Of a stretch of 64,000 bases of DNA, positions 9,901 through 63,008 are shown piece after piece. The notes beneath the pieces were generated by a model. The model worked only from the letters and a program-made list of their open reading frames with translations. It made no database searches and was not told the DNA's origin. A program made the translations under genes and the position numbers. The stretch's first letter is position 1. Each line of letters opens with the position of its first letter. The DNA comes from Minisyncoccia bacterium. GTDB taxonomy: Bacteria > Patescibacteriota > Minisyncoccia > Phycocordibacterales > UBA918. Where the stretch lies: NCBI GenBank assembly GCA_046293175.1, contig JBKBPM010000001.1, positions 363,446 to 427,445 of the forward strand, given 5' to 3'.

Positions 9901-12900
9901 AGGTAGTACTCGTGGTATCACGTTGGCCGGCATTTGCGCTAATAAACGAAGGATTAGGGTCAGTAATACCGCCGTTTGCGACTGAAATGTTAGTGGTGTT
10001 ATTGCCGTTGGTGAGATTGGCACTATCAAACATATTCCAGTCATCAGCCGCATCGCCAACCGGTGTCCATACACTCACCGCACTACAGGTAGTAACCCGT
10101 GGCCCGAATTCCAGTCGATAGGCAGTTGAAACTGACGCTGCGGCTCCTTCGTTTGAGAGTGCCACCCGCAAACGAATTGGTGAATTGGCTGGATGATCAG
10201 TCAAAATGGTATTTTCCGTGCCGCCTGTGGCCGATAATGCGTCAGTTTCAATACCGGTGTCATTGCGCCAGTGGTAGCCGGTTTGGGTAATCACTGGACC
10301 GGACAGCGTTGTTGTACCCGCAATTGCAATTGGTGTTGATGGTGAAACTGATCCGGCTGAAACAACCACATCATTGGCTGGTGAAGAAATTTCTATTTGG
10401 ACAGTGTCGCCATTACTAGCGGTACTCAAAACATCAAATACCACGTACAAACACAATGCTTGTGTGGTAGTTACTGTCACAGAATCACTAAATGTTGAGG
10501 TACCATTGTCGGCAGTAAAGCCGTCGGTGTCAGTAGCCCCGTACTGCGGTTCTGTTCCGGCATACGTCTCACTCGCACAGTTGTACGGTGCGGTGGTATC
10601 GAGGTCGTAACGAAGTCGAATGTTATCAAGATCGTTGAGGGCATCAACAGTACCATTTTCGGCAATCAAAATACTTGTAATGTTGCGACTGCTCGTATTT
10701 TCGCGGAATACAAACTGACCACCAACATGTTGGTTGGTTGATGGTACAAGAAGTGATGTTGCTTGGGTTCCAGAAGCGGTAACACTAACATCTGCCGCAA
10801 TTGTAACACTGGGGAATTGTGAATAGACCGGTAAGGGTGTACCAGCATTAGTAACTCGAAAACAGTACGTAGTTCCTTCAACTGCTGTAGTTGAAGCGAC
10901 AATAGCATACTCAAGTTCAACAAAATTCGCATTGGAGAGTGTAAGTGATCCGGTTTGTGAAGAAATTTCGCGCATACCACCATTTGGTGTGAGGAATGTG
11001 GTATTCTCATCAGCCACGCCACCGTTGGCAACAGCAATATTTGTCGTATTATCACCTTCAACGAAGTTAGATGATAGTGACATATTCCAGGCATCATCAG
11101 TCGCACCCACATCAGTCCATGAAGTTATATCGGTACAGTTTGGTGCAGCTTCACCATATTCAAGCCGGAACGTAGTTGCAGCACTTGAAAGGGATCCTTC
11201 GTTAGATACTTGTAGACGAAGTCGACGTGGTGAATTTACCTGCAGAGCCGGAATTGGTGTATCAGCCACACCAGCAGTAGCTGACAAAGCGGCTGTTTCT
11301 ACACCAGCATCAGTACGCCAGTGGTAGTGTGTTTGGGTCAGTTCATCATTTTGAATAAGACTAGAAGAGGCGGTACGAACTGGGCTCACCGGCATCACAT
11401 CTACACCACCAGTAACGATAATATCGTTATTCGGATCTTCTACAGAGACGGCGAGCGTATCTCCATCAAGCACACTTTCAAGCACGTCAACCACCACATA
11501 GAAACACATCGCTTGGGTAGTTGAGATGCTCTGGAGTCCAGAAAAGCTCGCAGTTCCATTAGGTCCCGAAAAGCCATTGGTATCTGTAATCCCAAACTGT
11601 GTCTCGCTACCACTGTACGATTCACTGGCACAGTCATACGGTGCCGTGGTATCAAGATCGTAGAGTACTTTGATATTTTTGACGTCAGTACTACCATCAA
11701 CAGTACCTCGTTCACTAATCACAATGGCAGTCACATTACGACTACTCTGACTTTCACGAATCGCATACTTCCCACCAGTATAGACGTCTGTGGTACCACC
11801 AACGATAGTACTCACCGCAGTACCCGTGGCATAAAGTTTAGTAATTGGCGCAATATCAGCGAGCGTATCACCAAAATAATCATCAGGTGCTGGGTCTGTC
11901 CATGACACATAAATGCGCTCATCACTCATGAGATTAATATCAAGACCACGATGATCACCAGGAGTGACTCCAGAGACTGTCTGTTCTGCACTCCAGGAAG
12001 ACATGGCTGAAGTAGATGTAGACCAGTAAATTCCACCTGTTGTGGCTGTAGCTGGCGTCGAGCGTAACACATACGCCACATACACCGTACTGGTATTGGT
12101 ATCAAGGCCAATTGCAACGGTGTTGAGTCCCCGGGTAGTGTTGGTAAAGACAGCCGTTGTACCAGTCCATGATCCAGAAGAAAACTTGGCGGTACGCACA
12201 TCGTGGTCAAGTGTTGTGTAATTGTCATGATCGGCACCATAAGCGAGATACACATCACCGGAATTTGGGTCAACTACTGCAGCCATACTTGTGTCGTAAG
12301 TGGCACTTTCAACCGCGGCACCATCAATGGTCGTCCAGCTTGCTGACCAGCTTGATCCATTCCATACGCGAGAACGAATAACGTTGGCACTAATGTCACG
12401 ATTAATAAGCAGTACATCTCCTGTGGTTAGGGCGAGAAGAATATTTGTATCGTTATCAAGATCCATAAAGCGTGCGCCACCCGGCTCATCCCAACCAGTG
12501 GTAGCAGTACATCCGGAATCGGTATCACACCGTACAACAAAAGAGTCAGTGGCATCAGAAATGCCCATAAAAACTTCATTACCGGTATTTTTGGTAATCG
12601 TGACGTTATTCTGACCACTGGTAAATGTACCTGTCTGACCCGAATTACTACTCGTGTCTACTGGTGAGCTACCTAAAAGGAGGGTGTCTGTCGAGGTATC
12701 AAGCGCGTTGTAATAGAGACGATCGGTGGCCGCAGCAGTTTCCATAGTAGCGATGTGAATGGTAGTACCGTAGTCACCGGGCGTCCACTGGTCATACCAA
12801 ACAGCAATACTTGCACAGTCTGTTTGAGCATCAACCGTTACTGCTCCATTCCACGAACTACCTCCGTTAGTGGTTTTACTATAGACACAGGTGTTCGCAG

Positions 12901-13141
12901 CATCACGATAAAACTTGTACCCAACCTGATCAGAAATGAAAACCGTTTGGGAACCGCCAAAGAAAAAGGAGTTGGCATCGGTACTCACGGAGTTATCAAT
13001 AGTAGTTTGAGCCGCTTCGGCAAAACTGGGCCAAACCATGTACTCCAAAAACGAGAAGTTGAGGAAAACCGTAACAAACAACAACGAGCCAGCTATAACT
13101 TGTCGCCATCCATACCAAAAAAACGCTGGAAACCTCCGCAT
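6980..13141 (-). CDS. giant surface protein (2053 aa): BNR-like beta-propeller, four ~120-aa RW...YCFR modules, Cys-rich C-terminal W-G-I-type domain
   Basis: Uninterrupted 6162-nt ORF with an N-terminal signal anchor. Asp-box-like blades (SSWNGAVTV, VWNGSSWSASW, SSGSWTGTTA, MSSWSAEQTV) span about aa 60-430. Repeated modules each begin Y-H/R-W-R-x-D-x-G and end YCFR[VLM].N.G. The C-terminal roughly 200 aa are homologous to the C-termini of the 7450-aa and 625-aa proteins. Confidence 0.85.
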   Translation of the reverse strand: MRRFPAFFWYGWRQVIAGSLLFVTVFLNFSFLEYMVWPSFAEAAQTTIDNSVSTDANSFFFGGSQTVFISDQVGYKFYRDAANTCVYSKTTNGGSSWNGAVTVDAQTDCASIAVWYDQWTPGDYGTTIHIATMETAAATDRLYYNALDTSTDTLLLGSSPVDTSSNSGQTGTFTSGQNNVTITKNTGNEVFMGISDATDSFVVRCDTDSGCTATTGWDEPGGARFMDLDNDTNILLALTTGDVLLINRDISANVIRSRVWNGSSWSASWTTIDGAAVESATYDTSMAAVVDPNSGDVYLAYGADHDNYTTLDHDVRTAKFSSGSWTGTTAVFTNTTRGLNTVAIGLDTNTSTVYVAYVLRSTPATATTGGIYWSTSTSAMSSWSAEQTVSGVTPGDHRGLDINLMSDERIYVSWTDPAPDDYFGDTLADIAPITKLYATGTAVSTIVGGTTDVYTGGKYAIRESQSSRNVTAIVISERGTVDGSTDVKNIKVLYDLDTTAPYDCASESYSGSETQFGITDTNGFSGPNGTASFSGLQSISTTQAMCFYVVVDVLESVLDGDTLAVSVEDPNNDIIVTGGVDVMPVSPVRTASSSLIQNDELTQTHYHWRTDAGVETAALSATAGVADTPIPALQVNSPRRLRLQVSNEGSLSSAATTFRLEYGEAAPNCTDITSWTDVGATDDAWNMSLSSNFVEGDNTTNIAVANGGVADENTTFLTPNGGMREISSQTGSLTLSNANFVELEYAIVASTTAVEGTTYCFRVTNAGTPLPVYSQFPSVTIAADVSVTASGTQATSLLVPSTNQHVGGQFVFRENTSSRNITSILIAENGTVDALNDLDNIRLRYDLDTTAPYNCASETYAGTEPQYGATDTDGFTADNGTSTFSDSVTVTTTQALCLYVVFDVLSTASNGDTVQIEISSPANDVVVSAGSVSPSTPIAIAGTTTLSGPVITQTGYHWRNDTGIETDALSATGGTENTILTDHPANSPIRLRVALSNEGAAASVSTAYRLEFGPRVTTCSAVSVWTPVGDAADDWNMFDSANLTNGNNTTNISVANGGITDPNPSFISANAGQRDTTSTTSALAMSTTEFTEYEFSITSTNITGFNTTYCFRLTNNGEPLTYTNYAELTTAPKRDFKVQRGTATIIGTSQTFTAGVDYTAPLSTTTAFVRITDTHNTGPGRTTAGGGAQNADDVTAYISSANLPTSFTISRPPAATGNTRVSWEIIEFIGDAGTDNEMKVRGVGSVNLASAALVATGTSLGTITDNADVVVFITGVENRDTARNFYYAGQTTSQWSPTSTAPVFNRNAGGAIINVSYAVVEFTGINWQVQRIEHTYTAAGVVETESIPTPVNSLARAFIHTQKRMNALGNVNNFGHEVWLSSIGAVSFRLEAAATTPSGHTSVAWIIENLQTSAGAMDVQRTNGTTNAGTEPVTLSISIFSPIDATNNASIFANTRVVGANTTFPLVFAGARITGTSTYELWRSEASGEMTYRTEIVEWPISGLAIRQNYFRFYANNNNLTPTDPWPPGVSDLGENNPISIADEPLGDGDVVRLRMTMRVANANLPAGLYDFKLQYGLRATSCSTVGTWNDLDAANGSGIWRGYAATGTTNGTMLSTNPPTGGDLLISVADRAGSLVEENPAPANPYLVDPGEDVEYDWFIEHNGAISRSTYCFRMVRSDGTPLDGYFNYPQIRTAGYSPQTKRWRFYEDAENETPVTPLASEINAPVEVQNGNEFALRVIVGQRKSVVGQDIKFKLQYDESPAFTSPHDVVATSSCTATSTWCYVDGGGTDNATITTKVLSDANSCASGVGSGCGTHNESPTYTTGYTHLAGADTEFAFYLRHAAARAGAVYYFRLYEVFEDMPVAAANGETLPSLVTETPKLTLSISGLPSGTTTAGVMTTVTTTPSTVSFGSIPINTDALAAHRLAVTTNATDGYRVLSFARQQLINDYGTPIPPISGTNASPVAWAVGCLASATGCTGYHTTDATLSGGSTRFAPLDSYAGLHTAVAEVMYSPIPANDTHDIVYRVRVTGLQPAAIYTTEVVYIAVPVY

Positions 13142-13195: not shown

Positions 13196-14746
13196 CTACT
13201 CGACCACAGGTATGACTGTTGGTGAAGCATTAGGGGTAAACGGGGTAACCACAAGATCAGGTATTTCAGCTGTTGGCCCTGGCTGTGGTTCGATGATTGT
13301 TGACTCTTTGATCAGGGTAAGGTCCAAGGTTAAACCGGTGGTACTGGCAGTACTGACTGTTGTGGTAGCTAGATCTAACTCAAGATCAGGTGGTGTACTG
13401 GAAGCATTTGTATCACTTGGTGGTGCACCCTCAAGTGCCTCTTCTTCTGTAGTTGATTTTGCAGTGAGCAGTGCTCGCGGTTCGCCAGTGGTATCAGGAT
13501 CAGGAATCTCTTCTGGTAGTGGGGCTGGCTCTGCAGCAAATGAGGTTATTTCACCTGTTACTAAGTCATAACCGCGCGTTATTGTCTCGCCACTATCCAT
13601 CGCTGCGTCATACACAAGAACCATACGCGGATTTGAAATAGTACCTCCGTTATCATCACGAATCGTCATAAAGGCACGTGAGTTTAGATCGTAGACCTCT
13701 ATAGTTTTTTCGTTGTAATGAACACGGTGCCAAACCACAAGATTATTTCGTACGACTGGCGCTAAATTGTGTTCACTGGTGTTGGTGAGTTGGTTCGCTG
13801 TCTCGCCATCAAAGAGCATAATCTGCCAAGCATCGTTGTCCCAGTACTGCCAAACAATAATGTTGTCTGCTCGGAATGGCTCCATGTTGTTGGTGCTGGT
13901 ATTTGTTAACTGCTGTTCTTCACCCGAAGCCATATCGTAGACCATAATCTGATACCGTTCATCAATCAAACGATGCCAAACAAGACTATCTGATGCCGGG
14001 TCGTAGTAGGGTGACGCATCATCAACTGTATTGAAGGTAATTTGCTGCATTCCATTTTTATTTTTGATGTAGATTTCGAGATCACCATCACTGTCAGGTA
14101 ATGAGAATAATCCCTGTTCGTCGCTGACCGGAGTTGTTGTTGCAACCTGACAGTAGAAGGAGCCATCTTCAACAGCCAGACAGTTATCTTTATTGAATTG
14201 AATCATCTGGTCACTCTCAACCGTCAGTGTTGGTGCATTTGGGTCGGTGGTTGTTGCGGTTGAGGTGGCAATTTCTTCTATGGTGGTAGTCGCATCACTG
14301 GCAAGAGCAACTTCTTCAGGAACCACAACTTCCCCGTCACCTGAGGTATCAGGTGCAGGGTCAAGCGGCGGCGGGTCTTGAGGAGGTGGACTTTCGTTTG
14401 GTAACTCTGGCGTGACAGGAGGGACTTCAGGTGCAACTACGTCGCCATCAGGAGAGGTGTCAGACTGAGCAACCTCTACCTCGGCAACCGGCTCTGGGGT
14501 TGTTTCAGTTCGTTCTGAAATCTCGTGTTGGATAGTAGCTACCGTTTCATCAGTGATAGTAACTTTGAGGTCTGGTGCTGGTTCAGGAACAGGTTCAGAG
14601 GCATAGGCACGCTCAATTGTTTGGAGTAAAAATGAACAAACCAGAACAACAACAAAGACCCGTACAAGCGCACGTTCAAAGACAAGTCGATACAACAGGG
14701 GTGTACCTGGAGGCGACGAAGATGTATTGGCTGGTAGTTGTTTCAT
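13196..14746 (-). CDS. secreted Pro/Thr/Glu-rich protein with propeller-like W-rich repeats
   Basis: 516 aa with a signal anchor and acidic PT/PE-rich low-complexity N- and C-terminal regions. The central domain has repeated ~40-aa units (LVWHRLIDERYQIMVYDM, IVWQYWDNDAWQIMLFD, LVVWHRVHYNEKTIEVYDL, MVLVYDAAMDSGETITRGYDL), suggesting a beta-propeller. Confidence 0.65.
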   Translation of the reverse strand: MKQLPANTSSSPPGTPLLYRLVFERALVRVFVVVLVCSFLLQTIERAYASEPVPEPAPDLKVTITDETVATIQHEISERTETTPEPVAEVEVAQSDTSPDGDVVAPEVPPVTPELPNESPPPQDPPPLDPAPDTSGDGEVVVPEEVALASDATTTIEEIATSTATTTDPNAPTLTVESDQMIQFNKDNCLAVEDGSFYCQVATTTPVSDEQGLFSLPDSDGDLEIYIKNKNGMQQITFNTVDDASPYYDPASDSLVWHRLIDERYQIMVYDMASGEEQQLTNTSTNNMEPFRADNIIVWQYWDNDAWQIMLFDGETANQLTNTSEHNLAPVVRNNLVVWHRVHYNEKTIEVYDLNSRAFMTIRDDNGGTISNPRMVLVYDAAMDSGETITRGYDLVTGEITSFAAEPAPLPEEIPDPDTTGEPRALLTAKSTTEEEALEGAPPSDTNASSTPPDLELDLATTTVSTASTTGLTLDLTLIKESTIIEPQPGPTAEIPDLVVTPFTPNASPTVIPVVE

Positions 14747-14875: not shown

Positions 14876-15628
14876 TTAATTTTTTGAACGGAAATAATTC
14901 GCTAGGAGTATTGAAAAATCTTTAAATGTCATCAAACCATCATTATTAAAATCGTAGCGGTTATTTTGCTTGAACCACTCCACCATAAAAATACTAATAT
15001 CTTCTAGGGTCACCTTACCATCAGCATTGACATCACTGACCAAAAGTACCACTGCTTCCCCTTCAAGGGTTCCGTTTGATTCAGCAATCTGCACGCGTGC
15101 CACACTATCTTCGCCGACTTTGGCGTCAATTTTGGTACCACGACCGTCTCCAGCCAATAAATTGGCTTCTTTAGTGGTAATAACAACCTCACCGGTAGCC
15201 CGAGCTTTTGCATTAATGGTGGCAATGAGGTGCTTACCAACAAAGCCTTTACGGTACGTACCTCCTTCTAAGATAACTGCGCCATTTTCGACCCGCGGGT
15301 CACTTGTCCAAAGCGTAATCACTGACTCCCCACGGTCTATACCTAATATTTCAATTTTGTCCTCTGGGTAGGCAATAGAAAGTGAAACGGCATTCACGGG
15401 TGTATTCGCAACCGCATACACATCTATAGCAAAAGTCTCATTTGTTAAGTGTTGCTTTTGTTTAGTTTCAAGTACAATAGTTGATTTTGAACTTCCGACC
15501 ACCGAAGCCACACTTACTACCAACACTAGCAAAAAAGCTAGCGAGAACATATACCGCACAGTTTGATTGGGCGGCACTGGTCGTCGCTTCTTTATGACTT
15601 CTTTAAGTGCCGACCGAAATTTGATCAT
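14876..15628 (-). CDS. small cohesin-domain plus dockerin-domain protein
   Basis: 250 aa with a signal anchor. The N-terminal cohesin-like block (FAIDVYAVANTPVNAVSLSIAYPEDKIEILGIDRGESVITLWTSDP...) parallels the cohesin domains of 16319.. and 52812... The C-terminus is a classic duplicated dockerin (DVNADGKVTLEDISIFMVEW...DFNNDGLMTFKDFSILLANY). Confidence 0.7.
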   Translation of the reverse strand: MIKFRSALKEVIKKRRPVPPNQTVRYMFSLAFLLVLVVSVASVVGSSKSTIVLETKQKQHLTNETFAIDVYAVANTPVNAVSLSIAYPEDKIEILGIDRGESVITLWTSDPRVENGAVILEGGTYRKGFVGKHLIATINAKARATGEVVITTKEANLLAGDGRGTKIDAKVGEDSVARVQIAESNGTLEGEAVVLLVSDVNADGKVTLEDISIFMVEWFKQNNRYDFNNDGLMTFKDFSILLANYFRSKN

Positions 15629-16302
15629 ATTGTTTGCAACTCTCGTCTGGTGGCCTCAATTTGTTGCATTCGAACCGTCATATTATTTTTGATGTCAGTT
15701 ACGTTACGAAGGGTTCTGGTAATCTCATCAGAATCACGACTCTTGCCTGCGAGAAGAGCCATAATGATGTCGCGCTGGAGTTCTACTAGTCGAGTAAAGT
15801 CGGCGGCAGTTGAAAGTTCATCATCTGCTACCCGTTGCCAAAGTGCTACTCGCTCTGTCAATTCATCATCAGTTGATAGAATCCGCGCTCGTAATGAAAT
15901 ATACTCTTCATAAACACTTACTTCGCGAGCGAGTCGAGCCGCCATCACAGACTTTTTGTCAGCAAAGTAACTTCCACAAGCAAAGAAGAGACTATCGAGC
16001 TCAGTAAGCTCAGATCGAGTAATAGTAGACGAAAGTTTATCGAGGAGTGTCTCAAAGCGCTGACGCTCGGTTGGCGAGCAATCGACTACAATGCGTTCTG
16101 TAATTTCGTCTGCCTCATTTCGTTTGGTGAGGTCAGCAATAGTTGCCAGTACGAGTTCTTGTTCCGCAATATTAGTATCAAGGGCCAAGCTCGTGGAATC
16201 AAGCTTCTTCGCGACAGCAGAATCTGTGTACAAAGAAATGCCCCACAGAAGAAGTACAATACCGATAATAATCAGGGTTATTTGGCGGGCAGAAACATGC
16301 AT
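15625..16302 (-). CDS. hypothetical membrane-anchored coiled-coil protein
   Basis: 225 aa with an N-terminal TM (ITLIIIGIVLLLWGISLY). The rest is helical, charged and heptad-like. The gene overlaps its neighbour by 4 nt, consistent with an operon. Confidence 0.55.
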   Translation of the reverse strand: MHVSARQITLIIIGIVLLLWGISLYTDSAVAKKLDSTSLALDTNIAEQELVLATIADLTKRNEADEITERIVVDCSPTERQRFETLLDKLSSTITRSELTELDSLFFACGSYFADKKSVMAARLAREVSVYEEYISLRARILSTDDELTERVALWQRVADDELSTAADFTRLVELQRDIIMALLAGKSRDSDEITRTLRNVTDIKNNMTVRMQQIEATRRELQTI

Positions 16303-16318
16303 AGCAAAATTGGGTTAG

Positions 16319-18034
16319 TTAGTCAGTTAGTTTGGTTACATCGGATACCTCTTTTTGAACAATACGCTCTGCAGATTTTAGCACATCTCGAACGTCGGTG
16401 ATAAGGGCTTCCTCTGTAGTAGTAAGCTTGCCAGATTTGCGACTACGAACAATATCAGCTTCGTGATTGCGAAGGAGAGCTTCAATGGCCAAAAATTGGC
16501 TATGTAGTGCAACACCAACTTCACTACTCTCGCGATTAAGAAGAATACGGAAACGACGATAGCGAGCCAAGAAATAAAGACAAAGAAGCACCGTCAGTGC
16601 TAAAAGGGCAACCAGTGGAATGATAACGGAGAGAACATCAATCAAAAATGAACCGATTCGGAGTAACCCCATTGGCTGTACCACAAACTGTATTGGATCA
16701 GATACGCTACTTTGAGCACCAAACTCATCTTTAGCAGAAGCGGTTAGTGTATATACACCTTCAGTGAGTGCACTGTTAGGAATAAATCTAAACGAGCCAG
16801 TCTCATCACTTTTCACTTCATACCTCGCTGGCTCCTGACCACTATTTGTGAGAGTTATGGCAACCGTAGCATTTGGACGAGTTGTTCCCATGAAGACCGG
16901 AATAACCCCAGTGCTGATTTCGGCCGGAACATCTGTAAAGCGAGGTGCTTCAAAAGATTCAATTTCAAAAGTAAAGGTTGAAACTGTACTATTGCCAGCG
17001 GCATCTACTACTTCAACCACTAAGGTCTGGCGACCGGGCGTGAGATTTTCAAGTTTTATTTCATTTTTACCATCTTCGTTTTTGTACTCAACTGGCGCAG
17101 CCCCATTAAGCTGGACCATAAAGGATTTGATTGGTGAACCGTTTGTGTCAGTGGTCGAGGCTACAATAATTTGGGTTGGATTAGCAAGGTTGCTGTCAGG
17201 CTTGAGACTGAGGACTACATTTTGCGGTGCAGTAGTGTCAACCGCAAGACGATAATGTGTCACCTTCCCCCACCCCTCGTCATTTTTGAACTGGATATGG
17301 AAATATGACACTCCTTCTTCAAGATCAGTGAGGGTAATCTCTTTGATTGGACTATCGTACACCTTAGTTGGAATAGCAGTTGGTGATTCATCAAGGGCTG
17401 TACGTACCGCAACGACATCTGAAGGCAATGTCCAACGCAATACTGCTGTGGTTTCCTTTGACCAGCCAGCAGGGTCGCCATGCGTATCAGAGGTGATTTT
17501 TGGTGCGGCTGGTGTATTGGCTGGAGGGACAAACTCGACAATCGCTTCAGGTTCTGGCGTCTCACTCGCTGCCGAGATGGTATAGGCACCACTTCCCATA
17601 CTAGAAAGTACATTGGTGCCACGACCATCGGCTGCCAACACCGAGCCACTGCCAAAATTGACGCGTGCTGAACCAGAACCAAGGGTGCGGAATGTAATAG
17701 TCATCACTGTTCCAGAACCACCAGTATAGCCAGTTGGGGTGCCACCACTAAAACTGATAGTTCCAGCACTATTTGAAAAGGCTGGCTCAGTAGTCCATAG
17801 GTTGAAGATGGAACTACTACGAGAAACCGAAACTACCTGCAGGGCTTTGTTGTCAAAGGTAATAGTTCCATCAGCCGCATTAATGGCTGCCCCTTTTGTA
17901 TCAACTGATACACGGACAGTAAATGTACTGCCACTTCCATAGACACCAGTGGCTGGTGAAATATTAAGAGTTGCAGCAAACGAAATACTGCTGTAACCAA
18001 AAAGAGCGAGAACGATGAGTAAACGAAGGAACAT
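16319..18034 (-). CDS. cohesin-domain membrane protein with Ig-like domains, C-terminal TM and conserved cytoplasmic helical tail
   Basis: ORF 16319..18133 (-). Probable start at an internal Met (MFLRLLIVLALFGYSSISFA signal) near 18034. The cohesin block (ATLNISPATGVYGSGSTFTVRVSVDTKGAAINAADGTITFD...LWTTEPAFSNSAGTISFSGG) is followed by a PT linker, Ig-like domains (VEVVDAAGNSTVS), a TM (VLSVIIPLVALLALTVLLCLYFL) and a roughly 90-aa tail homologous to the tail of 52812..54365. Confidence 0.7.
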   Translation of the reverse strand: MFLRLLIVLALFGYSSISFAATLNISPATGVYGSGSTFTVRVSVDTKGAAINAADGTITFDNKALQVVSVSRSSSIFNLWTTEPAFSNSAGTISFSGGTPTGYTGGSGTVMTITFRTLGSGSARVNFGSGSVLAADGRGTNVLSSMGSGAYTISAASETPEPEAIVEFVPPANTPAAPKITSDTHGDPAGWSKETTAVLRWTLPSDVVAVRTALDESPTAIPTKVYDSPIKEITLTDLEEGVSYFHIQFKNDEGWGKVTHYRLAVDTTAPQNVVLSLKPDSNLANPTQIIVASTTDTNGSPIKSFMVQLNGAAPVEYKNEDGKNEIKLENLTPGRQTLVVEVVDAAGNSTVSTFTFEIESFEAPRFTDVPAEISTGVIPVFMGTTRPNATVAITLTNSGQEPARYEVKSDETGSFRFIPNSALTEGVYTLTASAKDEFGAQSSVSDPIQFVVQPMGLLRIGSFLIDVLSVIIPLVALLALTVLLCLYFLARYRRFRILLNRESSEVGVALHSQFLAIEALLRNHEADIVRSRKSGKLTTTEEALITDVRDVLKSAERIVQKEVSDVTKLTD

Positions 18035-18035
18035 A

Positions 18036-19061
18036 TTATACGATATCGGTAATATCAGCTGCTTCTGGTACCGTCGCAGCACACTTGGTTTTACGTCTAC
18101 GACGCCAGTACCAGATGAGTAGCGTAAGGACAACGAGGGCTACCACCGCACTTCCACCAGAAGCTATCATCCAGAGTGGCCAACGTTCAAGACTCGCATT
18201 CTTTGGAGCTAATGTTGCAATATACTCGTTTCCGGCCTTGTCTACCGCGCGGACACGAATGGTACTCTTAAGACTCTGATCATTGAGAACATACGGACTA
18301 CGAGTTTCAGTCCAGACTGTGGTAGCAGCACCAAAGGTGAAAAGGCGGGTATCTTCAACCGGTTCTTCAATTACTTCGTAGTGACTGATGCCACTTTGTT
18401 TGTCGGTGGTATTAAAGACAATATAGTATTTCTTATCAAAGGCAAACTCATCCTTTTCAAGTGTAATCGAGAATTCCTCAGGCGGAATATTATCAGCAGT
18501 AATGACATCACGCCAATCATCAACAATGGTACTTCCTACCACTTGATTGAGGATAAGTTCTGCACCAAGGGTTTGGAGTTGTGCTTCGGTCCCAAAACCA
18601 TCATTGAGAAAAGCGCGTGTTTCAGGCTTAAAGGTGACAGTACCTAAAGCCGGAACATCAGTTCCACCAACAGTGAGGCCTGGGGCTCGAAAGACAATCT
18701 GTAGCAACGTGTTTGTAAGACGTGGATCCCCTTCAACACGACCACAATAACCATTTGGAATGCCGCCGGCAAAAGTGATGGTTCGGCTGTCTTTATCAAT
18801 GACGGGTTGTTCTACCCAGATTGGGAAAATTGATTGTCCAATTGAAATGTCAACTGGATTAATTGCTTCGTTGTAAGTAATAACACCATCAATGGCATTA
18901 ATACATTCATCGGTCGCTTCATCAGTATCAAGACGAACTGAGAGGGTTACCGAGTCACCTCGGTTAAGTGTGGGACGTGGCGGATCAAGATACAAAGTAG
19001 CTGCTGACGCGAAATCAGCTGCAAAAAACATACACAAAAGAAGAGCGAGTCGATAGACCAT
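18036..19061 (-). CDS. cohesin-like membrane-anchored surface protein
   Basis: ORF 18036..19166 (-). Likely start at MVYRLALLLCMFFAADFASA (near 19061). The cohesin-like N-domain (ATLYLDPPRPTLNRGDSVTLSVRLDTDEATDECINAIDGVITYNE...) is followed by an Ig-like domain (VRAVDKAGNEY), a C-terminal TM (VVALVVLTLLIWYW) and a short basic tail. Confidence 0.65.
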   Translation of the reverse strand: MVYRLALLLCMFFAADFASAATLYLDPPRPTLNRGDSVTLSVRLDTDEATDECINAIDGVITYNEAINPVDISIGQSIFPIWVEQPVIDKDSRTITFAGGIPNGYCGRVEGDPRLTNTLLQIVFRAPGLTVGGTDVPALGTVTFKPETRAFLNDGFGTEAQLQTLGAELILNQVVGSTIVDDWRDVITADNIPPEEFSITLEKDEFAFDKKYYIVFNTTDKQSGISHYEVIEEPVEDTRLFTFGAATTVWTETRSPYVLNDQSLKSTIRVRAVDKAGNEYIATLAPKNASLERWPLWMIASGGSAVVALVVLTLLIWYWRRRRKTKCAATVPEAADITDIV

Positions 19062-19172: not shown

Positions 19173-20327
19173 TTAGAACACTGGGGTTGCTACGTATGTC
19201 AGCGTAGCGGTATAGTCGTTCCCCGCTTCCTGGAGCGGAGAAATTTCAACTTTGTAACCTACGCGGGTACTACCAACATTTGGAGTGGTCCCGTCTGAAG
19301 GTCCATTGTGTCGAAATACTTCAACTGGTGTGGTTGATGCAGACACAAACAGTTGCCCGGTTGTGCTTGCAGCAAATGGATCCGTCAAAGCATCGGTGAG
19401 TGAAGAGTCTTCTGTGGTTATACCCCAGTGACCCCACGTATTCTCATCGCTGATTGAACCGGTTGGCGGTTGCCACGCCACTGGCGTGTTAGTGTACGCA
19501 CCATCGATAAATCCATCAATATCAGCACCAGTTGAAGAGAGCAACTGCTGATCAACTTGCACAGTTACGGCAAAACCGTAGCTCGCATTTGTTGACACAG
19601 ACAATTGCTGAGCTGATGTCGTGGCTGTACCCTGTGTCAAAACACCAAATGGAATTGATGTGGCAGAGGTTGAGCCAGTAATTGCTTCTTGGTTAACTGT
19701 TCCAGTAGCGACACCGCTTACGGTAAATGTAAAGCTAGTATCAACTGCAGCAGTAACAACGACTGGTGAGATGATAGCTACTCGAGTAGTTCCACTATCC
19801 GCTGAACCCGCAGTAATGTCGATTTCGTATGAACCGACAGCTGGGTTGGTCAGCTGAGCATTACCAGTGGCACCAAAAGTGGCATTGGTTCCGATCTGGA
19901 TAGTAGTTGTACCGTTGGCCGGCAACGAAGCACCATCACCAGCACAGAACTCGAGGGTAATGGTGTTGGTACTTGTTGAAAAACCAACCTCATCAGTGCC
20001 TCCACATCCTGCACCAATAGACAAATCTGTACCGTCATCAGTGATGTCGACGTCATCAAATGCGACTGCTCCAAGAGCGAACGGCCCGTTAGAGAAATCG
20101 ATGACAATTGATTCACCGTTTGCAACACCAGAAGGTGTAACAAAGCTGATGGTGTGATTTGATGGCACACTCGGAGCTGAATCCGAGAGCGTATCACTTA
20201 CTAATCTGACATTTGCGGCCTCCGCAAAGCGGAACGTTGGTAGACCCAAAGACCATAACAAGATGGCGAGTCCAACAACAGAAGCCAGTGCTTGGAGTAG
20301 TCCGAACGTTGAATTCGTTCTACTCAT
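19173..20327 (-). CDS. WxL-like cell-surface protein (N-terminal SNHTIxF domain, C-terminal W-G-[IL] beta-rich domain)
   Basis: ORF 19173..20399 (-). ATG verified at 20327 (MSRTNSTFGLLQALASVVGLAILLW signal). The C-terminal half (SFTFTVSGVATG...TWGHWGITTEDSS...TATLTYVATPVF) carries two motifs reminiscent of the WxL domain. A paralog lies at 59876..60997. Confidence 0.65.
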   Translation of the reverse strand: MSRTNSTFGLLQALASVVGLAILLWSLGLPTFRFAEAANVRLVSDTLSDSAPSVPSNHTISFVTPSGVANGESIVIDFSNGPFALGAVAFDDVDITDDGTDLSIGAGCGGTDEVGFSTSTNTITLEFCAGDGASLPANGTTTIQIGTNATFGATGNAQLTNPAVGSYEIDITAGSADSGTTRVAIISPVVVTAAVDTSFTFTVSGVATGTVNQEAITGSTSATSIPFGVLTQGTATTSAQQLSVSTNASYGFAVTVQVDQQLLSSTGADIDGFIDGAYTNTPVAWQPPTGSISDENTWGHWGITTEDSSLTDALTDPFAASTTGQLFVSASTTPVEVFRHNGPSDGTTPNVGSTRVGYKVEISPLQEAGNDYTATLTYVATPVF

Positions 20328-20626
20328 GACTCTACATTGTATTAGCCAGGCACTACTGCGAGAGTTAGACAATGCAGTAACGTGACTCGCGACCGTCATC
20401 GTTCACAGTGTGGTCTCCACCCCACTTCTGTATAGACGAGCGACAGGCATACTAATGCTGTAACAGCGGCTGTTCTGTCCTAGCATACCATTGTGGTGGG
20501 AGCTAGCAGTATCATTAAAGAGATACCTCCAACATTAGTACTATTTCATTGTAGCCTGCTCCCCGAAACAAAAGAGAAACTTATACACAAAATTTATTTG
20601 GTTTGTCCCATTCAATTGAATATTGC

Positions 20627-21119
20627 TCAGTTAAGTAGGCTTTTACTTAATAAAAGCATCGTTGCTAACGTATAGATATTTAAACGTTCACCATTGGATT
20701 GCACCCACCAGGTATGTGCTGGTGACATATTTGTTTGATTTGACACATAATTTTTACCGCCTATAATCGCATTTGCATCTCTACTAACAAAATAAGTGTT
20801 TGGATCTATTCTTGTGGTTTTTGAATTTTCAAAATGTTTAATGTTTGTTACAAAATCTGCAACAATTTTTAAGTTCTTTGACCCTTCAGTTCTTGAAAAA
20901 ATTTTCTCAATGTTTTTATCATTACTGAATACTTTAATCCAATCTTTTAGATGATAAAGATAAAAAAATATATAAATAATCTTCTTGTTCAACTATAGGC
21001 ACTCCGTTTATCTGGTGAACATTTGACTCAACCTCTTTCACTTTCGTATGCCATCTTTTTACATGTTCCCACTGTTCCAAGTAGTCTTTTCCTTGAAATT
21101 GAGGTGTAAAACTTTGCAT
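20627..21119 (-). pseudogene. AT-rich-island gene interrupted by a frameshift in a T7 homopolymer (possible phase-variable or degraded gene of unknown function)
   Basis: ORF 20934..21119 (-) ends ...EQEDYLYIFLSLSSKRLD. ORF 20627..20992 (-) begins only at a TTG, with no ATG. The two frames cross at the A7/T7 run at 20962..20968. A +1 shift gives a continuous product of about 165 aa (...EQEDYLYIFFYLYHLKDWIKVF...HTWWVQSNGERLNIYTLATMLLLSKSLLN). The surrounding 0.8 kb is about 30% GC against about 50% elsewhere. Confidence 0.45.
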
Positions 21120-21284
21120 ATAATGATTTTAACACCAAACTTCGAAATCTGGACTATTACATAGGTAGTATGAAACAAAATGCTTGCTAGCAAGGCGCAC
21201 CAGTGATAAAGAACGAGCTATATTGTTATACGGTGATGATTCCGAACAATATGCAACAAAGCTAGGGAGGATTTTGATCGTAGC

Positions 21285-22391
21285 CTAACCGGTCCAGTTG
21301 AAAAGAAGAATAGAAAAGTCCTCCAACCCTACCCGCCCATTACTATTAATGTCAGCTGGTGGATTTGAGTCGCCACCGGCAGTCTGCCACCAGAAAATGA
21401 GAATAGAAAAGTCAGTGAGATTTACTTTACCATCGCGACTGAGGTCAGATGGGGAACTTGGTGCCCCATCAACTCCCAACAGAAGCTGTACAACGCTACT
21501 ATAGCCACTTTGTGTAAGCAACGGTGGTGTACCAGTAATCGAGCGTACTTTGATTGGATAGGTAGCATTTCGCATCGAAGCAGTGTTCAGGGTAAAGGTA
21601 TAGCGACCACTCGCATCACTCGTCGTACGCTCAGTACGGAGACTACTATTTCCCACTTGGATTTCAATTGTAGCACTCGGGACCGCTTGGCCAAAAATGG
21701 TGATCGTGCTACCTGGACTCACTTTAGTATTCGAGAGAATGAGAGTTGGTGGCAACAAAAGGCCACTCACGTTTGTTACCGCTCCTTGGGTCACATCAAA
21801 GGTACTATTGAGCGTGATTGATCTGACACCATTAGCATCGTTTGCCCACACTCCAAGTGTCGCTGTTCCAGGAGACGCTTTAGTAGAAAATTCAAACCGT
21901 CCTGAGCTATTGGCTCGTACCGAGCCAACCGACTTGGTATCAAGTAAAAAGTTTACTTGTTGGTTAGGGTAAGCGATACCAGTCACGCTGATTGACGCAT
22001 CACCCAAATCACGTGTACCTCCTCCTCCCCCACCACCACCTGAGGATCCACCACCACCTGAACCAGCCGGTTCAATTTGGCAGGTAGCCGAACAAAAGTC
22101 ACCGCCGGTATTGTTGGCGTCGTCACATTCTTCTGCATAAGTGGTCTGCAAAATACCATCGCCACAGTACGGTCCATAGTCACAAACGGCATTACACTGA
22201 CGACCGGCTATAGTGGTACTGTATAGCCCAATTTCACCAGGCACATCACACTGCTCACCAACATCCACTAGTGCATTACCACAGATACTGAGATCGATAG
22301 TAGTAGTCGCAGTTGAAATCGTCACCGCATGAGCATCGCCAGGAAAAGTTCCAAGTGAAGCAATTATGAGAAGGAAGGCTATCCACTGCAT
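21285..22391 (-). CDS. secreted dockerin-domain protein with N-terminal Cys-rich (myxococcal-type CxxxGEECD) repeats and Ig-like/CarD-like beta domains
   Basis: 368 aa with a signal peptide (MQWIAFLLIIASLGTFPGDAHA). Cys-rich repeats (CGNALVDVGEQCDVPG, CGDGILQTTYAEECDDANN, CSATCQ) are followed by a Gly linker and beta-sandwich domains. The C-terminus is a duplicated dockerin (DLSRDGKVNLTDFSILIFWW...DINSNGRVGLEDFSILLFNW). Confidence 0.75.
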   Translation of the reverse strand: MQWIAFLLIIASLGTFPGDAHAVTISTATTTIDLSICGNALVDVGEQCDVPGEIGLYSTTIAGRQCNAVCDYGPYCGDGILQTTYAEECDDANNTGGDFCSATCQIEPAGSGGGGSSGGGGGGGGTRDLGDASISVTGIAYPNQQVNFLLDTKSVGSVRANSSGRFEFSTKASPGTATLGVWANDANGVRSITLNSTFDVTQGAVTNVSGLLLPPTLILSNTKVSPGSTITIFGQAVPSATIEIQVGNSSLRTERTTSDASGRYTFTLNTASMRNATYPIKVRSITGTPPLLTQSGYSSVVQLLLGVDGAPSSPSDLSRDGKVNLTDFSILIFWWQTAGGDSNPPADINSNGRVGLEDFSILLFNWTG

Positions 22392-22396
22392 AGTTG

Positions 22397-23347
22397 TTAG
22401 CCTAAACGTCGCGACCGGCGATTGTGAATAAAATAAAGGATAACTATCAAGAGCGCAAAGATTGGGAGAAGGAGTGAGAGCTTATGAGCAATAGAAAGTC
22501 CCATAAAACCATAACCGGCAAGCTGCAAGGTACCATACGGCAAAATACTAAGGTTTAACTCACCTTCCTGTTTGACGTCTTCTTCATTCTTGATGGAGTA
22601 CCGCACCATATAGCTCCCAGCCGGTAGACGGGTTGGCAGCGAAGCATTAATCTCTTCAATGGCGTATGGAGCAATTTTTTTAAGTCTACCAGTGTTATGT
22701 GTCTCTTCGAGGAGTACTGCCCCAGCCCGATCATAAATACGAAACTCAACATCAGACGGTGCGACATCGACATTACCGGTGTTTTCAATCAACATTGCAA
22801 AATTAATTTTTCCGGGGAAGTAGAGCCATCCCACTTTCTTACCTTCATTGAGATCATTTACTGAAATCTTACGAACACGGAAATCTTTAATCACTTTATC
22901 AATCACAGAAAGATCAATATCTACTTGAGCACCAAGCGAAATACTTACCACACCCTCAGCTACTTGATCATCGGCGGAGAGAGTTCGAATACGAATCTTA
23001 CCGGTATAGTCTCCAAAATCAGCATCTGCTGGAACTTTGATGCGTACCGTCATTGGTACCTTCTGCTGACCACGTGGCAGCGGAATAGATTGTCCTTCTA
23101 CGATTTCAATCCAGTCTTGAATCTCCGGTGCATCAATAGTGACTTCGGCTTTGAGGTTATCGCTTGGGTTACCTCGTACCAAGAGGATTTGTTGTTCGTA
23201 AGTTGAGTTTCGAGTGAGACTGGTATTGCGAACATACGGTGGAGTAATACCAAAACTAGCATGACTTAAAGCTGGCCAAAAGACTAGGATTGCGACCACG
23301 CACAAAACAAAAGAACGAAACAAAAACGTTGGCAAAATTACCTTCAT
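22397..23347 (-). CDS. CscA-like (DUF916/DUF3324-like) cell-surface protein with C-terminal TM anchor
   Basis: ORF 22397..23425 (-). ATG verified at 23347 (MKVILPTFLFRSFVLCVVAILVFWPALSHA). About 270-aa ectodomain, a C-terminal TM (LLLPIFALLIVILYFIH) and the tail NRRSRRLG. It lies immediately downstream of 23440..25317. Confidence 0.6.
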   Translation of the reverse strand: MKVILPTFLFRSFVLCVVAILVFWPALSHASFGITPPYVRNTSLTRNSTYEQQILLVRGNPSDNLKAEVTIDAPEIQDWIEIVEGQSIPLPRGQQKVPMTVRIKVPADADFGDYTGKIRIRTLSADDQVAEGVVSISLGAQVDIDLSVIDKVIKDFRVRKISVNDLNEGKKVGWLYFPGKINFAMLIENTGNVDVAPSDVEFRIYDRAGAVLLEETHNTGRLKKIAPYAIEEINASLPTRLPAGSYMVRYSIKNEEDVKQEGELNLSILPYGTLQLAGYGFMGLSIAHKLSLLLPIFALLIVILYFIHNRRSRRLG

Positions 23348-23439
23348 GCGATACAGACTATTATCGAAAATATCTGACAAAAAAGCAATAACCACTGTTA
23401 GGATAACAGTGGTTATTGAAGTCAATTATGGTCTGTTAT

Positions 23440-25317
23440 TTACCAAGCAGATGGTGTTGAGATAGCACCAGTGAATGTGTTCTGACCGGTATACGATCCT
23501 GCGAGTGTAATCGTACCTGGTACTGCAATACCCCAGTAGGTTGTTCCAGAAGTTGGAGTTGAGGTACTCGTTGGCTTTGGAATCTGAATTTGGAGCAAAG
23601 CCGGCGAGGTAGTGGCAGGAAGGGGTGATCCCGATGCGTAGGCAACTGCCGAGGTTGCATAGCGCTGCTGGTTTTGCGGGATAGTTGAGGTTGCAGAGAC
23701 GGGACAAAGACTACTGTTACTAAATGTTGTACACATAGACTCTCCACCGAGCAGCTGGTTGAGGCCAGTGTTACCAAGTACTCGCAGTGACGATGATGAA
23801 GTCAAGTTCGGCATGTTGGTACCTGGTTCGAGCTGATCGTACGCAATGGTACTCGTGAGAAGGTCAATCGCCACCAGACTAAGTAGCTCTACTGGGCTAG
23901 TGGTGGTAGCCATGGTACCCGTAGCAAAGTCATCGTCGACGCCTGCCACACCAGCACTCCAGGCTTGGGTATCAAATGGTGTACCAGAAACTGTTGGGTC
24001 GGCAATAAACCAAAGTGGGAAACTACATGAGTAGTTAATCGTGTCATCAGTAGCACCTGTACACGAAGTAGATGAAGCGGTACATGAGAGGTTCCAGACC
24101 GACGACGAGACACCACTTGGGTAACAGTTGTTGGGGTTGTAGCTACCGGCGGTACCGTTACAGGTAGTGGTACCGATAGAGCTGCGGAAGATAGATACAA
24201 CCGAGCCAATAATTTCATCAGCAGAACCGCCACCAACTGCATCACAACTATTGGCATCTGCAACCACAAAGTCAAGGGTAAAACCTGATGTTTGCGCCCC
24301 TGGAACGGTCAGTGCCATATCAAGACCACCATTAAGAGAGATGGTACTTCCTGAAATAGTTGGAGCAACGTTATTGACTGCAAAGGTGACATTTGTTCCT
24401 TGTGCTCCACCTACTGCCTCATGGCCATGTTCGTCATAAAGGTACCCAAAAGCATTATAGTTCGTGTCTTGGAGAATACTTGCCATTACCCGACTAGTTG
24501 TCGCATTAGCATAAGCGAGTGATATTGATGAAGACGCAACGGTGTCACCAGAGGCACAACTGTTTGTGGTAGTACTATAGGATGCACTGCCGCACACAAC
24601 AAGATAGAGAACATCTTCTGTGTCAACAACGTCTGGGTCAGTTGATGTGGATCGAAATAGCAGTGTACCGCCTGGGTCTACCGGTCCATCATTACTGAAG
24701 CCAGAAAATATTGGTCGACGGTTAACGTTAAATGGAGAAGAGTTAGTAGCGTTTGTTCCTTGTGAAAAAGTTGTACTACAACGTGGATTTACAGGATCAT
24801 CATCACATACCCAAGCATACCACTCGTTTGACTCAGAAAATAGACCTACTTCGTCAGTGGTGGTCGCGGCGCGAGCCTCTGTACCACTTGGAGTTCCTGT
24901 AGAGACAGCCCATCGGGTACCGGCACTACAAACTGGAGGTCGGGTACCAAGCGTTGAGGTTGATTGTTGTGCTGTTGGAGTCGCACTGGTACTACAAATA
25001 ATGAGGAAGTACGGTGCACCGTTAGCGTCTGTTGCTGTACCTACCCATGCTATCTGATCACCAGAGTTCGTCGGCGAAGTTGATGAGGAGCTTATCAACT
25101 CACGTGCTTCTTGACCGGCCACCCACGTTGGTGGGGTGTTTAGTACCGTTAGAGTGGTCGTCGCGGTGCTGGTCGCTTCAGCCTTTTCTAGTTCAGTTTT
25201 ACCAATGTTAAGAATAAATATAAAGGTAAAAATGAGCAGTCCTGATAACGCTGATAATACAGTGATCTTTCCTGCGGTCTCTACATACCGCGGAAGGTTA
25301 TTTTTGTTGTACAACAT
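23440..25317 (-). CDS. surface protein (625 aa) with Cys-rich C-terminal domain ending YWGIAVP, homologous to the C-termini of both giant proteins
   Basis: Signal anchor (ITVLSALSGLLIFTFIFIL). The C-terminal roughly 250 aa (SSIGTTTCNGTAGSYNPNNCYPSG...IPQNQQRYATS...TYWGIAVPGTITLAGSYTG...) align block-by-block with residues about 7200-7450 of the 7450-aa protein. Confidence 0.7.
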   Translation of the reverse strand: MLYNKNNLPRYVETAGKITVLSALSGLLIFTFIFILNIGKTELEKAEATSTATTTLTVLNTPPTWVAGQEARELISSSSTSPTNSGDQIAWVGTATDANGAPYFLIICSTSATPTAQQSTSTLGTRPPVCSAGTRWAVSTGTPSGTEARAATTTDEVGLFSESNEWYAWVCDDDPVNPRCSTTFSQGTNATNSSPFNVNRRPIFSGFSNDGPVDPGGTLLFRSTSTDPDVVDTEDVLYLVVCGSASYSTTTNSCASGDTVASSSISLAYANATTSRVMASILQDTNYNAFGYLYDEHGHEAVGGAQGTNVTFAVNNVAPTISGSTISLNGGLDMALTVPGAQTSGFTLDFVVADANSCDAVGGGSADEIIGSVVSIFRSSIGTTTCNGTAGSYNPNNCYPSGVSSSVWNLSCTASSTSCTGATDDTINYSCSFPLWFIADPTVSGTPFDTQAWSAGVAGVDDDFATGTMATTTSPVELLSLVAIDLLTSTIAYDQLEPGTNMPNLTSSSSLRVLGNTGLNQLLGGESMCTTFSNSSLCPVSATSTIPQNQQRYATSAVAYASGSPLPATTSPALLQIQIPKPTSTSTPTSGTTYWGIAVPGTITLAGSYTGQNTFTGAISTPSAW

Positions 25318-26785: not shown

Positions 26786-26885
26786 AGTACATCCATTATG
26801 ACACAACTCGTTACATGCATTGGGCAGATAACCCCACCTATTAAAGGTAAACTTTGTACTAGAGCACACTAGTTGATTTAAGATT

Positions 26886-27195
26886 CAAGGTGAGAAATGG
26901 GATGGGGTAAAGAATGATGGGTATCATTCTTTACGAGGTTGCCAGCTATTTTGATTAAAAATAGCGACAACCTGTACTGGTCATGTAATGACCCATTTCG
27001 TAAGACGTTGCCAGCTACTTTATGAGAGAAACGAAATAAAGTAGTGACAAGGTGTGCTACTCCTCTAAGGAGGTGAGAAATTTTGAATTGTTTTAAAATG
27101 CTACCTAAAGTAAGGTTGTGGTAACTGAGAGACGTGGACAAAGCCATTAGTAATAGGCTTTGCTCACGGAAATTCTCACTAGTCAGCTTACACCT
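26886..27195. repeat. hairpin-rich intergenic repeat element, copy II (between ABC ATPase and permease genes)
   Basis: ggtgagaaatgg..., two sub-copies of the gccagcta hairpin (gctattttgattaaaaatagc; gctactttatgagagaaacgaaataaagtagt), then ctgagagacgtgga-caaagcc-attagtaata-ggctttg-ctcacggaaattc (hairpin 27139..27162 with compensatory changes relative to copies I and III). Confidence 0.7.
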
Positions 27196-27207
27196 CGTTT
27201 GTTTATT

Positions 27208-59715: not shown

Positions 59716-59875
59716 GCAAAAACTCATAGTGATAATGTTATTTATTATAGCATCGCTCAACTGTCATGAGCAGAACCTATAAACAGCGGGAGGGATTTGT
59801 TACACAACAAAAAACTCCCAATGGGAGTTTTTTGTTTCTACTTTTTTAATGCTTGCGACAAATTATAGACTTTCT

Positions 59876-62567: not shown

Positions 62568-62654
62568 AGATACTCCTAGTATACCAAAACCCACTGGCCA
62601 GTGGGTTTTGGTATACATTTTGTTTTTGGTCACCTGTGAGGACGGTCAATAATG

Positions 62655-62962: not shown

Positions 62963-63008
62963 TTTGTGACGCAGGCAATAAAGAAGATGCGGTATTAGTG
63001 GCTGTACT

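Follow-up and report, generated by a model that had tools for sequence, protein, structure and literature searches.

Two gene clusters in a 64-kb stretch of the genome of a Minisyncoccia bacterium (contig JBKBPM010000001.1, positions 363,446 to 427,445; the whole stretch is called the window below) encode proteins with cohesin and dockerin modules among pilin-like and chaperone-like proteins. Paceibacteria (Parcubacteria), in which the clusters recur, are among the most abundant uncultured bacteria of groundwater and sediments, and their attachment to hosts or surfaces is largely unknown. A first-pass annotation of the window, made from the sequence alone, had proposed a cohesin-dockerin surface assembly in which secreted subunits dock onto scaffold subunits anchored in the membrane. 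Genuine modules and membrane anchors were found, but not a free-standing scaffold: the set is embedded in two pilus-like clusters. The feature is real and strongly conserved, and its modules are known cohesin and dockerin families in a new setting, that of a pilus cluster. On the further claim, that the set is part of two conserved Paceibacteria clusters for a pilus-like fibre and tethers this fibre to the membrane, we consider the case evenly balanced. All genes of the region at the coordinates given here, and likewise all gene-assigned open reading frames (ORFs) of at least 150 amino acids (aa), are on the minus strand.

Cohesin and dockerin modules, their anchors and their tails

The proteins that carry the modules are the following (nt, nucleotide positions in the window; Ig, immunoglobulin; FN3, fibronectin type III).

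16319..18034, minus strand: CohB571, with a signal peptide, a cohesin (residues 21-156, nt 17567..17974) and three Ig/FN3-like domains; its C-terminal part has a membrane helix (nt ~16577..16651) and an 85-aa, predicted cytoplasmic helix-loop-helix tail (nt 16322..16576)
18036..19061, minus strand: CohC341, with a signal peptide, a cohesin-like domain with a conserved Cys pair, one Ig/FN3-like domain, a membrane helix and a short tail
14876..15628, minus strand: CohDocA250, with a signal-anchor-like segment (nt ~15485..15553), a cohesin (nt ~15113..15490) and a dockerin (nt ~14891..15034)
52812..54365, minus strand: CohD517, a paralog of CohB, with a cohesin, Ig/FN3 domains, a membrane helix and an 81-aa conserved tail (nt ~52815..53057)
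21285..22391, minus strand: Doc368, with a signal peptide, a conserved short N-terminal strand ('ATTTxxxSIC'), a Cys-rich DUF4215 repeat, a Gly linker, two Ig domains and a C-terminal dockerin
55052..56968, minus strand: DocPilin638, with a pilin N-terminal domain, a conserved linker (residues ~199-224), an Ig(Cys) domain, a Gly linker, two Ig domains and a dockerin (nt 55055..55213)

The cohesin-like N-terminal domains described in the first-pass annotation were borne out. CohB571 and CohD517 match the Pfam cohesin family PF00963 above its gathering score (33.9 and 41.9 bits, respectively; cut-off 24.1). No Pfam cohesin match was obtained in CohC341 or CohDocA250; profile comparison with hhalign connected their families with the CohB cohesin at probabilities of 99.9% (E 1e-32) and 98.8% (E 5.5e-17), respectively, and the CohD family with the CohB family at 100% (E 4e-99), in an alignment that runs on through the membrane helix and tail. 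The AlphaFold2 model of CohB571 (predicted local distance difference test score, pLDDT, 83) contains a beta sandwich at residues 21-154 followed by the three Ig/FN3-like domains, and the comparison with the cohesin family (PF00963, nine-stranded jelly-roll fold) was positive. In the cohesin membrane proteins, the cohesin fold starts right at the mature N-terminus. A search of the PDB with the CohB profile returned an Ig domain of SiiE as its sole match. According to hidden Markov models (HMMs) of the families, the window encodes exactly four cohesin proteins (CohB571, CohC341, CohDocA250 and CohD517) with one cohesin each, and all four modules are genuine by sequence and fold.

Three proteins have a dockerin, as first annotated, but only two of them are dockerin-only, CohDocA250 having a cohesin as well. 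Against Pfam PF00404 (Dockerin_1, cut-off 22.9 bits), DocPilin638 scored 38.1 bits, and CohDocA250 (22.2) and Doc368 (21.9) fell just below. The dockerin of CohDocA250 is also matched by NCBIfam dockerin_GC (E 1.6e-5), and the Pfam matches of Doc368 comprise DUF4215, Big_7 and Dockerin_1. The DxDxDG-type Ca-binding pattern is present twice in each dockerin, as two 12-residue D-x-[DNS]-x-[DN]-G...[DE] loops that no other ORF of the window carries (examples: DLNRDGKVNLTD and DISQDGRVNLTD; DVNADGKVTLED and DFNNDGLMTFKD). Both loops are kept in ~95% of the orthologs (47/50 for Doc368, 5/5 for DocPilin638 and 48/52 for CohDocA250), and residues D199, D203, G204, D210, D226, D230 and D237 are invariant in the CohDocA250 dockerin. 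Judged by sequence, the three dockerins are genuine, with predicted Ca-binding loops. Doc368 and DocPilin638 have a common stalk and a nearly identical dockerin, which is the best-conserved segment of DocPilin638 (702 homologs, ~636 aa among those listed). In Doc368, the N-terminal strand (mature N-terminus 'VTISTATTTIDLSIC') and the dockerin are conserved, the latter with a mean pairwise distance of 0.18, similar to the conservation of the MacB permease described below.

Membrane anchoring of the cohesin proteins, also claimed earlier, is predicted by a C-terminal helix for three of them and probably by an N-terminal one for the fourth. A signal peptide and a single C-terminal hydrophobic segment followed by Arg/Lys are found in each of CohB571, CohC341 and CohD517, so that by the positive-inside rule we infer a cytoplasmic C-terminus. 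CohDocA250 had been annotated as a cohesin-dockerin protein with no membrane anchor; its two modules stand, but all orthologs have an N-terminal hydrophobic segment (residues ~26-48) after a conserved 'TVRYMFP' motif, and the protein is probably membrane-tethered.

The long tail that the first pass had seen in both CohB571 and CohD517 is indeed common to them (residues 487-571 and 437-517, respectively): the HMM of the CohB tail detects CohD (E 5e-12) and has no further match in the window. That of CohC341 is, as noted then, only short, and it is variable and basic/acidic in the family alignment. In the AlphaFold2 model of CohB571, one long helix (residues 456-531) comprises the membrane segment and its cytoplasmic continuation and is followed by a loop (532-538) and a second helix (539-570); the RKxxKLT motif of the tail falls exactly in this predicted inter-helix loop. 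Ten tail residues are invariant in the CohB family (E502, F514, K533, K536, L537, T538, E541, K561, E562 and D565), and conservation reaches at least 80% at charged positions and in the loop motif, which reads KPxL[ST] in the paralog family. The same holds for the pattern E..E........F....L...E....L....KE..D across 82 tails of both paralog families, including those of Falkowbacteria and Portnoybacteria. The membrane helix and tail gave 166 matches among 1.8 billion representative proteins. Among the 150 matches listed, the single-stretch ones lie at or within ~20 residues of the C-terminus, and a Big_13 Ig domain precedes the tail in all 10 of the 10 matches scanned; given this placement and the preceding domain, the tail is specific to the cohesin family. 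No significant Pfam or NCBIfam match was found for the tails. Their profile returned from the PDB a weak apolipoprotein E-like similarity (E 2e-3) and spurious designed pentatricopeptide-repeat (PPR) proteins, which we read as amphipathic-helix composition and not as homology.

Pilin-like and chaperone-like genes in two conserved clusters

The following genes accompany the cohesin and dockerin genes, first those of the first cluster and then those of the second.

19173..20399, minus strand: Pilin408, Pam-like, with an N-terminal beta domain, a conserved alternating-hydrophobic linker (residues ~207-221) and a C-terminal domain
6980..13141, minus strand: Giant2053, a 2053-aa secreted protein whose last ~170 residues (nt ~6983..7492) are a pilin C-terminal domain
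22397..23425, minus strand: Chap342, a two-domain chaperone-like protein with a WxLIP/PapD-like fold and a C-terminal membrane helix
5981..6967, minus strand: Chap328, chaperone-like, with membrane segments
4375..6069, minus strand: Chap564, likewise; these two close the first cluster (basis for the pair: Pfam WxLIP_PGBD E 6e-5, LytR_C 36 bits, and synteny)
25577..28530, minus strand: MacB-type ABC transporter, with the ATPase (440 aa) at 27208..28530 and the MacB_PCD/FtsX permease at 25577..26869 (Pfam, NCBIfam)
59876..60997, minus strand: second pilin (373), matching NCBIfam NF058581 at E 8e-4 over the full profile (2-148/148)
58657..59760, minus strand: second membrane-anchored chaperone-like protein (367), WxLIP_PGBD E 0.0024
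58220..58642, minus strand: P140, a small conserved membrane protein in fixed position
57157..58149, minus strand: MgtE-type Mg2+ transporter, between the chaperone-like gene and DocPilin638
54393..54857, minus strand: Hsp20, a cytoplasmic small heat-shock protein (Pfam HSP20, 40 bits), 27 nt upstream of CohD517
30372..52724, minus strand: Giant7450, a 7450-aa ORF rich in Thr, Gly and Ser, directly downstream of CohD517

The NCBIfam model NF058581 (CPR_Pam_pilin_C, Pam pilus system pilin subunit) matches Pilin408 at E 2.5e-5 and 23 of the 31 members of the pilin family, at best at E 1e-7, all below the curated cut-off (at most ~35 bits against 55 bits). Residues V213, V215, A217, V219 and T221 are invariant in Pilin408, and a search of the PDB with the pilin gave no match at E up to 10. 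HMMs were then built for the N-terminal (NTD) and C-terminal (CTD) halves of the pilin. The NTD model matched the two pilins and DocPilin638 (residues 35-153, E 8.5e-11), which the CTD model did not match; the CTD model matched the two pilins and, over the full profile, the end of Giant2053 (residues 1885-2054, E 3e-17), in which the NTD model in turn found nothing. By these profiles DocPilin638 is a truncated pilin, and Giant2053 is a candidate tip adhesin.

Matches of the chaperone-like family to WxLIP_PGBD are weak and confined to 3 of 34 members, and the chaperone assignment therefore rests on the fold. Chap564 (564 aa) has its LytR_C domain after one or more membrane segments, which suggests a link to the cell envelope.

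Conservation was assessed in related loci from 80 species-level genomes, annotated with the proteins of the window. The first cluster has the order FN3, ABC ATPase, MacB permease, P625, Chap342, Doc368, Pilin408, CohC, CohB, X225, CohDocA, Prop516, Giant2053, Chap328 and Chap564 (P625, X225 and Prop516 are described in the last section). This order is preserved in dozens of species-level Paceibacteria loci, and all eight tested genes are full-length in 34 of them; a core of Chap, Doc368, CohC and CohB is retained even in distant lineages (L056, L060, L061 and L063). Spacing is tight: the CohC341 stop codon lies 1 nt from the CohB571 start codon, CohB and X225 are 16 nt apart, and X225 and CohDocA overlap by 4 nt. 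The MacB-type transporter is syntenic in most loci. Its ATPase has a helical C-terminal extension of ~200 aa (residues ~235-440), which has no significant Pfam or NCBIfam match; the length of 440 aa is conserved across the loci.

The second cluster runs from pilin 373 through chaperone-like 367, P140, the transporter, DocPilin638, Hsp20 and CohD517 to the giant ORF. One locus (L084) keeps this order, with an ABC exporter in place of the MgtE-type transporter and a 6976-aa counterpart in the position of Giant7450; two others (L073 and L078) keep the part with chaperone, DocPilin, Hsp20 and CohD. Hsp20 directly precedes CohD on its strand in 9 of 11 loci, as it does in the window and in L084. 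It is also found upstream of a divergent tail-bearing cohesin in L067. Such a conserved neighbourhood of a membrane cohesin and a cytoplasmic chaperone is odd.

Searches returned 700 to >1,200 homologs per protein family, with at least 50% identity among the matches listed. For CohB571 there were >1,199; those listed, 120 in number, cover the whole or almost the whole length at ≥50% identity and, where named, come from Parcubacteria/Paceibacteria. Because the putative fibre gene set of ~23 genes is strongly conserved, it is probably central to the lifestyle of Paceibacteria.

A proposed cohesin-dockerin anchor and its alternatives

In Pap/Fim pili, an acceptor-only subunit at the tip and a donor-only subunit at the base are established. 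The same is proposed for the Pam pili of Ca. Mycosynbacter amalyticus (Saccharimonadia), whose pilins consist of an N-terminal beta sandwich, a linker and a C-terminal domain, whose PapD-like chaperones retain a C-terminal membrane helix, and which have an acceptor-domain-only tip subunit, PamT, and a membrane-anchored terminator, PamR; a CorB Mg2+ transporter gene adjoins the pam operon (bioRxiv 10.64898/2026.03.03.709456). The clusters described here resemble this system in the pilin architecture, with its weak but repeated CPR_Pam_pilin_C match, in the chaperone-like proteins with a C-terminal membrane helix and PapD-like fold, in a CTD-only subunit (Giant2053, with ~1880 extra residues compared with the single-domain PamT), and in a Mg2+ transporter gene by the cluster, MgtE-type instead of CorB. 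They differ in that the pilin match stays below the curated cut-off and in that cohesin membrane proteins and dockerin adaptors stand in the presumed place of PamR. A membrane-anchored RbmA-like terminator of the PamR kind, with an N-terminal donor strand, was not found among the window proteins examined. FN3_491 was considered for this role, for which FnIII domains and a membrane helix were sought, and was rejected for want of a membrane helix. It was the only other multi-FN3 protein checked, and no other anchor candidate emerged, no search for sortase or LPXTG signals having been made. Because the pilins fall short of the curated threshold and PamR is lacking, we place the system as a distant, differently anchored Pam/chaperone-usher-like variant and not as a member. 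The Pam paper makes no mention of cohesin, dockerin, MacB or Paceibacteria (bioRxiv 10.64898/2026.03.03.709456), and in the literature we found no paper tying cohesin-dockerin modules to pili of the candidate phyla radiation (CPR).

Other pilus and surface systems are further removed. Compared with chaperone-usher pili (Pap/Fim, with the terminator PapH and two-domain tip adhesins), the domain content here includes no usher and points to no outer membrane; the chaperones are membrane-anchored, and the proposed base subunit would be held by a dockerin-cohesin joint. As regards the WxL/WxLIP clusters of Firmicutes (PMC10599100; structure 9i1y), a WxLIP-like fold and the weak WxLIP_PGBD matches are seen in the window. 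No window protein matched a WxL domain family in the Pfam/NCBIfam scans or has WxL motifs, the bacterium is not a Firmicute, and WxL clusters are described without cohesin/dockerin genes (PMC10599100).

The complementary truncations, with Giant2053 retaining only the CTD and DocPilin638 only the NTD, suggest a chain of tip giant, pilin shaft, dockerin adaptor and membrane cohesin. In such a fibre, assembly at the membrane would proceed by strand complementation. Giant2053, with an acceptor domain only, would go to the tip and the ordinary pilins to the shaft, and DocPilin638, as well as Doc368 via its conserved N-terminal strand, would fill the last acceptor groove. The Ig stalk and dockerin of these adaptors would plug, with Ca2+, into CohD517, CohB571 and perhaps CohC341, and CohDocA250 would serve as a combined cohesin and dockerin adaptor. 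The cohesin proteins would thereby take the role that PamR has in Saccharimonadia, by means of a non-covalent plug-and-socket joint, and the 81-85 aa tail, as a conserved hairpin of amphipathic helices, probably serves to oligomerise the anchors or to link them to a partner in the cytoplasm. Beyond domain content, every step of this chain is one that we infer. Module identity, conservation as a unit, the pilus context, the complementary truncations, the second cluster and tail conservation are all consistent with it. A pairing of the cohesins with the dockerins is plausible because at least 34 species-level loci conserve the entire set as one unit.

Several points weigh against the tethered fibre. 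Cohesin-dockerin binding is putative, and in mirror-tree analyses the partial correlations of the Doc368 dockerin (0.25 with CohB, 0.13 with CohA and 0.10 with CohC) are too weak to assign pairs. The Pam pilin model is matched no better than the ~35 bits given above, below its threshold, and no solved Pam structure was matched. By fold, the chaperone-like proteins match generic PapD-like/ASH Ig domains, a type that many unrelated beta sandwiches match as well. Although conserved, the DocPilin638 linker, 'VGVGPVDTTEEIPP', does not contain the V-x-V-x-A-x-V of the pilins in a unique register, and its use as a donor strand is conjecture. Filaments have not been observed in any cluster-bearing Paceibacteria, and the model leaves the MacB transporter, X225, Prop516 and P625 unaccounted for. 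The fuller proposal, in which the joint is the anchor/terminator of a donor-strand pilus and the tails couple the fibre base to Hsp20 and/or the extended ATPase, we hold to be unlikely as a whole.

A minority possibility that deserves to be taken seriously is a general display scaffold, in which the membrane cohesins are sockets for any dockerin-tagged surface protein (adhesins, stalks), independently of the pilus, and the neighbours are present only as fellow surface genes. Genuine modules suit this explanation as well, and Doc368 has no pilin domain, only its Cys-rich repeat and Ig stalk. As the window is limited to 64 kb, more dockerin proteins may exist elsewhere in the genome. The three found in the window, however, all lie within the clusters, and one of them is the truncated pilin. 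In dozens of species, and in two clusters, the cohesin, dockerin, pilin and chaperone genes have retained their order and spacing, which likewise counts against a display scaffold.

The tails raise another explanation, transmembrane linkage, for which the first-pass annotation had suggested looking for a co-conserved cytoplasmic partner. Related genomes yielded two candidates, the adjacent Hsp20 and the ABC ATPase with its C-terminal extension. Under this explanation the tailed cohesins act as sensors that relay an outside state (fibre load or host contact) to such a protein. An ancient, family-specific tail with a conserved loop motif and charged positions, the recurrent Hsp20 neighbour and the conserved extra domain of the ATPase would fit. 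The tail has no known signalling domain, though, only the weak apolipoprotein-like similarity of amphipathic helices, and it is less conserved than the ectodomain (0.42-0.46 vs 0.68). CohC lacks such a tail yet is equally conserved in the cluster, and the Hsp20 adjacency may reflect mere co-transcription. We judge such a transmembrane linkage or sensor to be distinctly improbable.

Also very improbable, in our assessment, is that the cohesin folds bind something else (cell wall, host surface or each other) and that the dockerins are Ca-binding EF-hand-like modules with another role. Cohesin and dockerin genes strictly co-occur in both clusters and in all lineages sampled, few segments of the dockerin proteins are as conserved as the dockerin itself, and CohDocA joins both modules in the manner of cellulosomal adaptor scaffoldins.

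Known cohesin-dockerin cases include C. thermocellum CipA (1OHZ), the anchoring scaffoldins OlpA/OlpC/ScaC, the non-cellulosomal cohesin 2XDH of Archaeoglobus fulgidus and the toxin-complex cohesins of C. perfringens. The set in the window differs from these in having no enzymes or carbohydrate-binding modules, one cohesin per protein, and an integral membrane helix with a conserved cytoplasmic tail in place of S-layer homology (SLH) domains or sortase; its binding is putative, and it is embedded in a pilus-type cluster of a CPR bacterium. A cellulosome-like enzyme complex for polysaccharide degradation, for which only the presence of the two module types speaks, has next to no chance and is rejected for the window genes, as Pfam and NCBIfam found no catalytic or carbohydrate-binding domain on the dockerin proteins, each cohesin protein has a single cohesin, and anchoring is by a membrane helix; the non-cellulolytic context of the first-pass annotation accordingly holds.

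If the tethered fibre is correct, the newly described Pam pilus would extend to another large CPR class, and cohesin-dockerin pairs would gain a structural role outside enzyme complexes, as a tether from fibre to membrane. Were the tails in addition to couple the fibre base to the cytoplasm, this would add a so far unknown means by which a bacterium lacking an outer membrane can build a surface fibre and sense it. The model would be open to direct work with recombinant modules, without culture.

Remaining genes and observations

Three further members of the first cluster are listed here.

15625..16302, minus strand: X225, a small protein, invariably encoded between CohB and CohDocA, in which a helical domain is combined with an N-terminal membrane segment or signal peptide
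13196..14746, minus strand: Prop516, with an N-terminal membrane segment, a Pro-rich region and a beta-propeller-like region (NCBIfam TolB-like propeller repeats at E 9e-8, below cut-off; synteny)
23440..25317, minus strand: P625, a secreted Cys-rich protein whose C-terminal domain is common with Giant7450

X225 has no Pfam or NCBIfam match and occupies the same position in ~50 loci; two conserved-looking Cys and a possible AxA signal-peptidase cleavage site can be seen in it. The C-terminus of P625 aligns with the last ~200 residues of Giant7450 (BLASTP E 8e-14, 30% identity). The domain was considered as a pilin CTD and found to be unrelated (hhalign probability 3.5%), and Pfam and NCBIfam gave nothing significant for it. 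By sequence comparison, P625 and Giant7450 thus have in common a second kind of C-terminal module, separate from the pilin CTD.

Nowhere in the window does an Rfam family attain its gathering score. Six loci with the Paceibacteria-type cluster (L055, L060, L065, L067, L070 and L074) come from metagenome-assembled genomes (MAGs) labelled Acidimicrobiales, Promethearchaeota, Gammaproteobacteria or Saccharibacteria, and many of the loci have 'Saccharibacteria' in their titles; these labels are probably binning or labelling errors in public records. Between Doc368 and the pilin gene lies an AT-rich insert of ~600 bp (~20600..21130) with two short overlapping ORFs (61 and 121 aa), where the gap in L001 is only 264 nt; it may represent an inserted gene that has since degraded. 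At 61308..63920 (minus strand), upstream of the second cluster, lie genes for a Y-family DNA polymerase (IMS-like by synteny) and for a GH18-like protein. The same neighbours are found in L084 and L085, which suggests that the conserved block reaches beyond the fibre genes.

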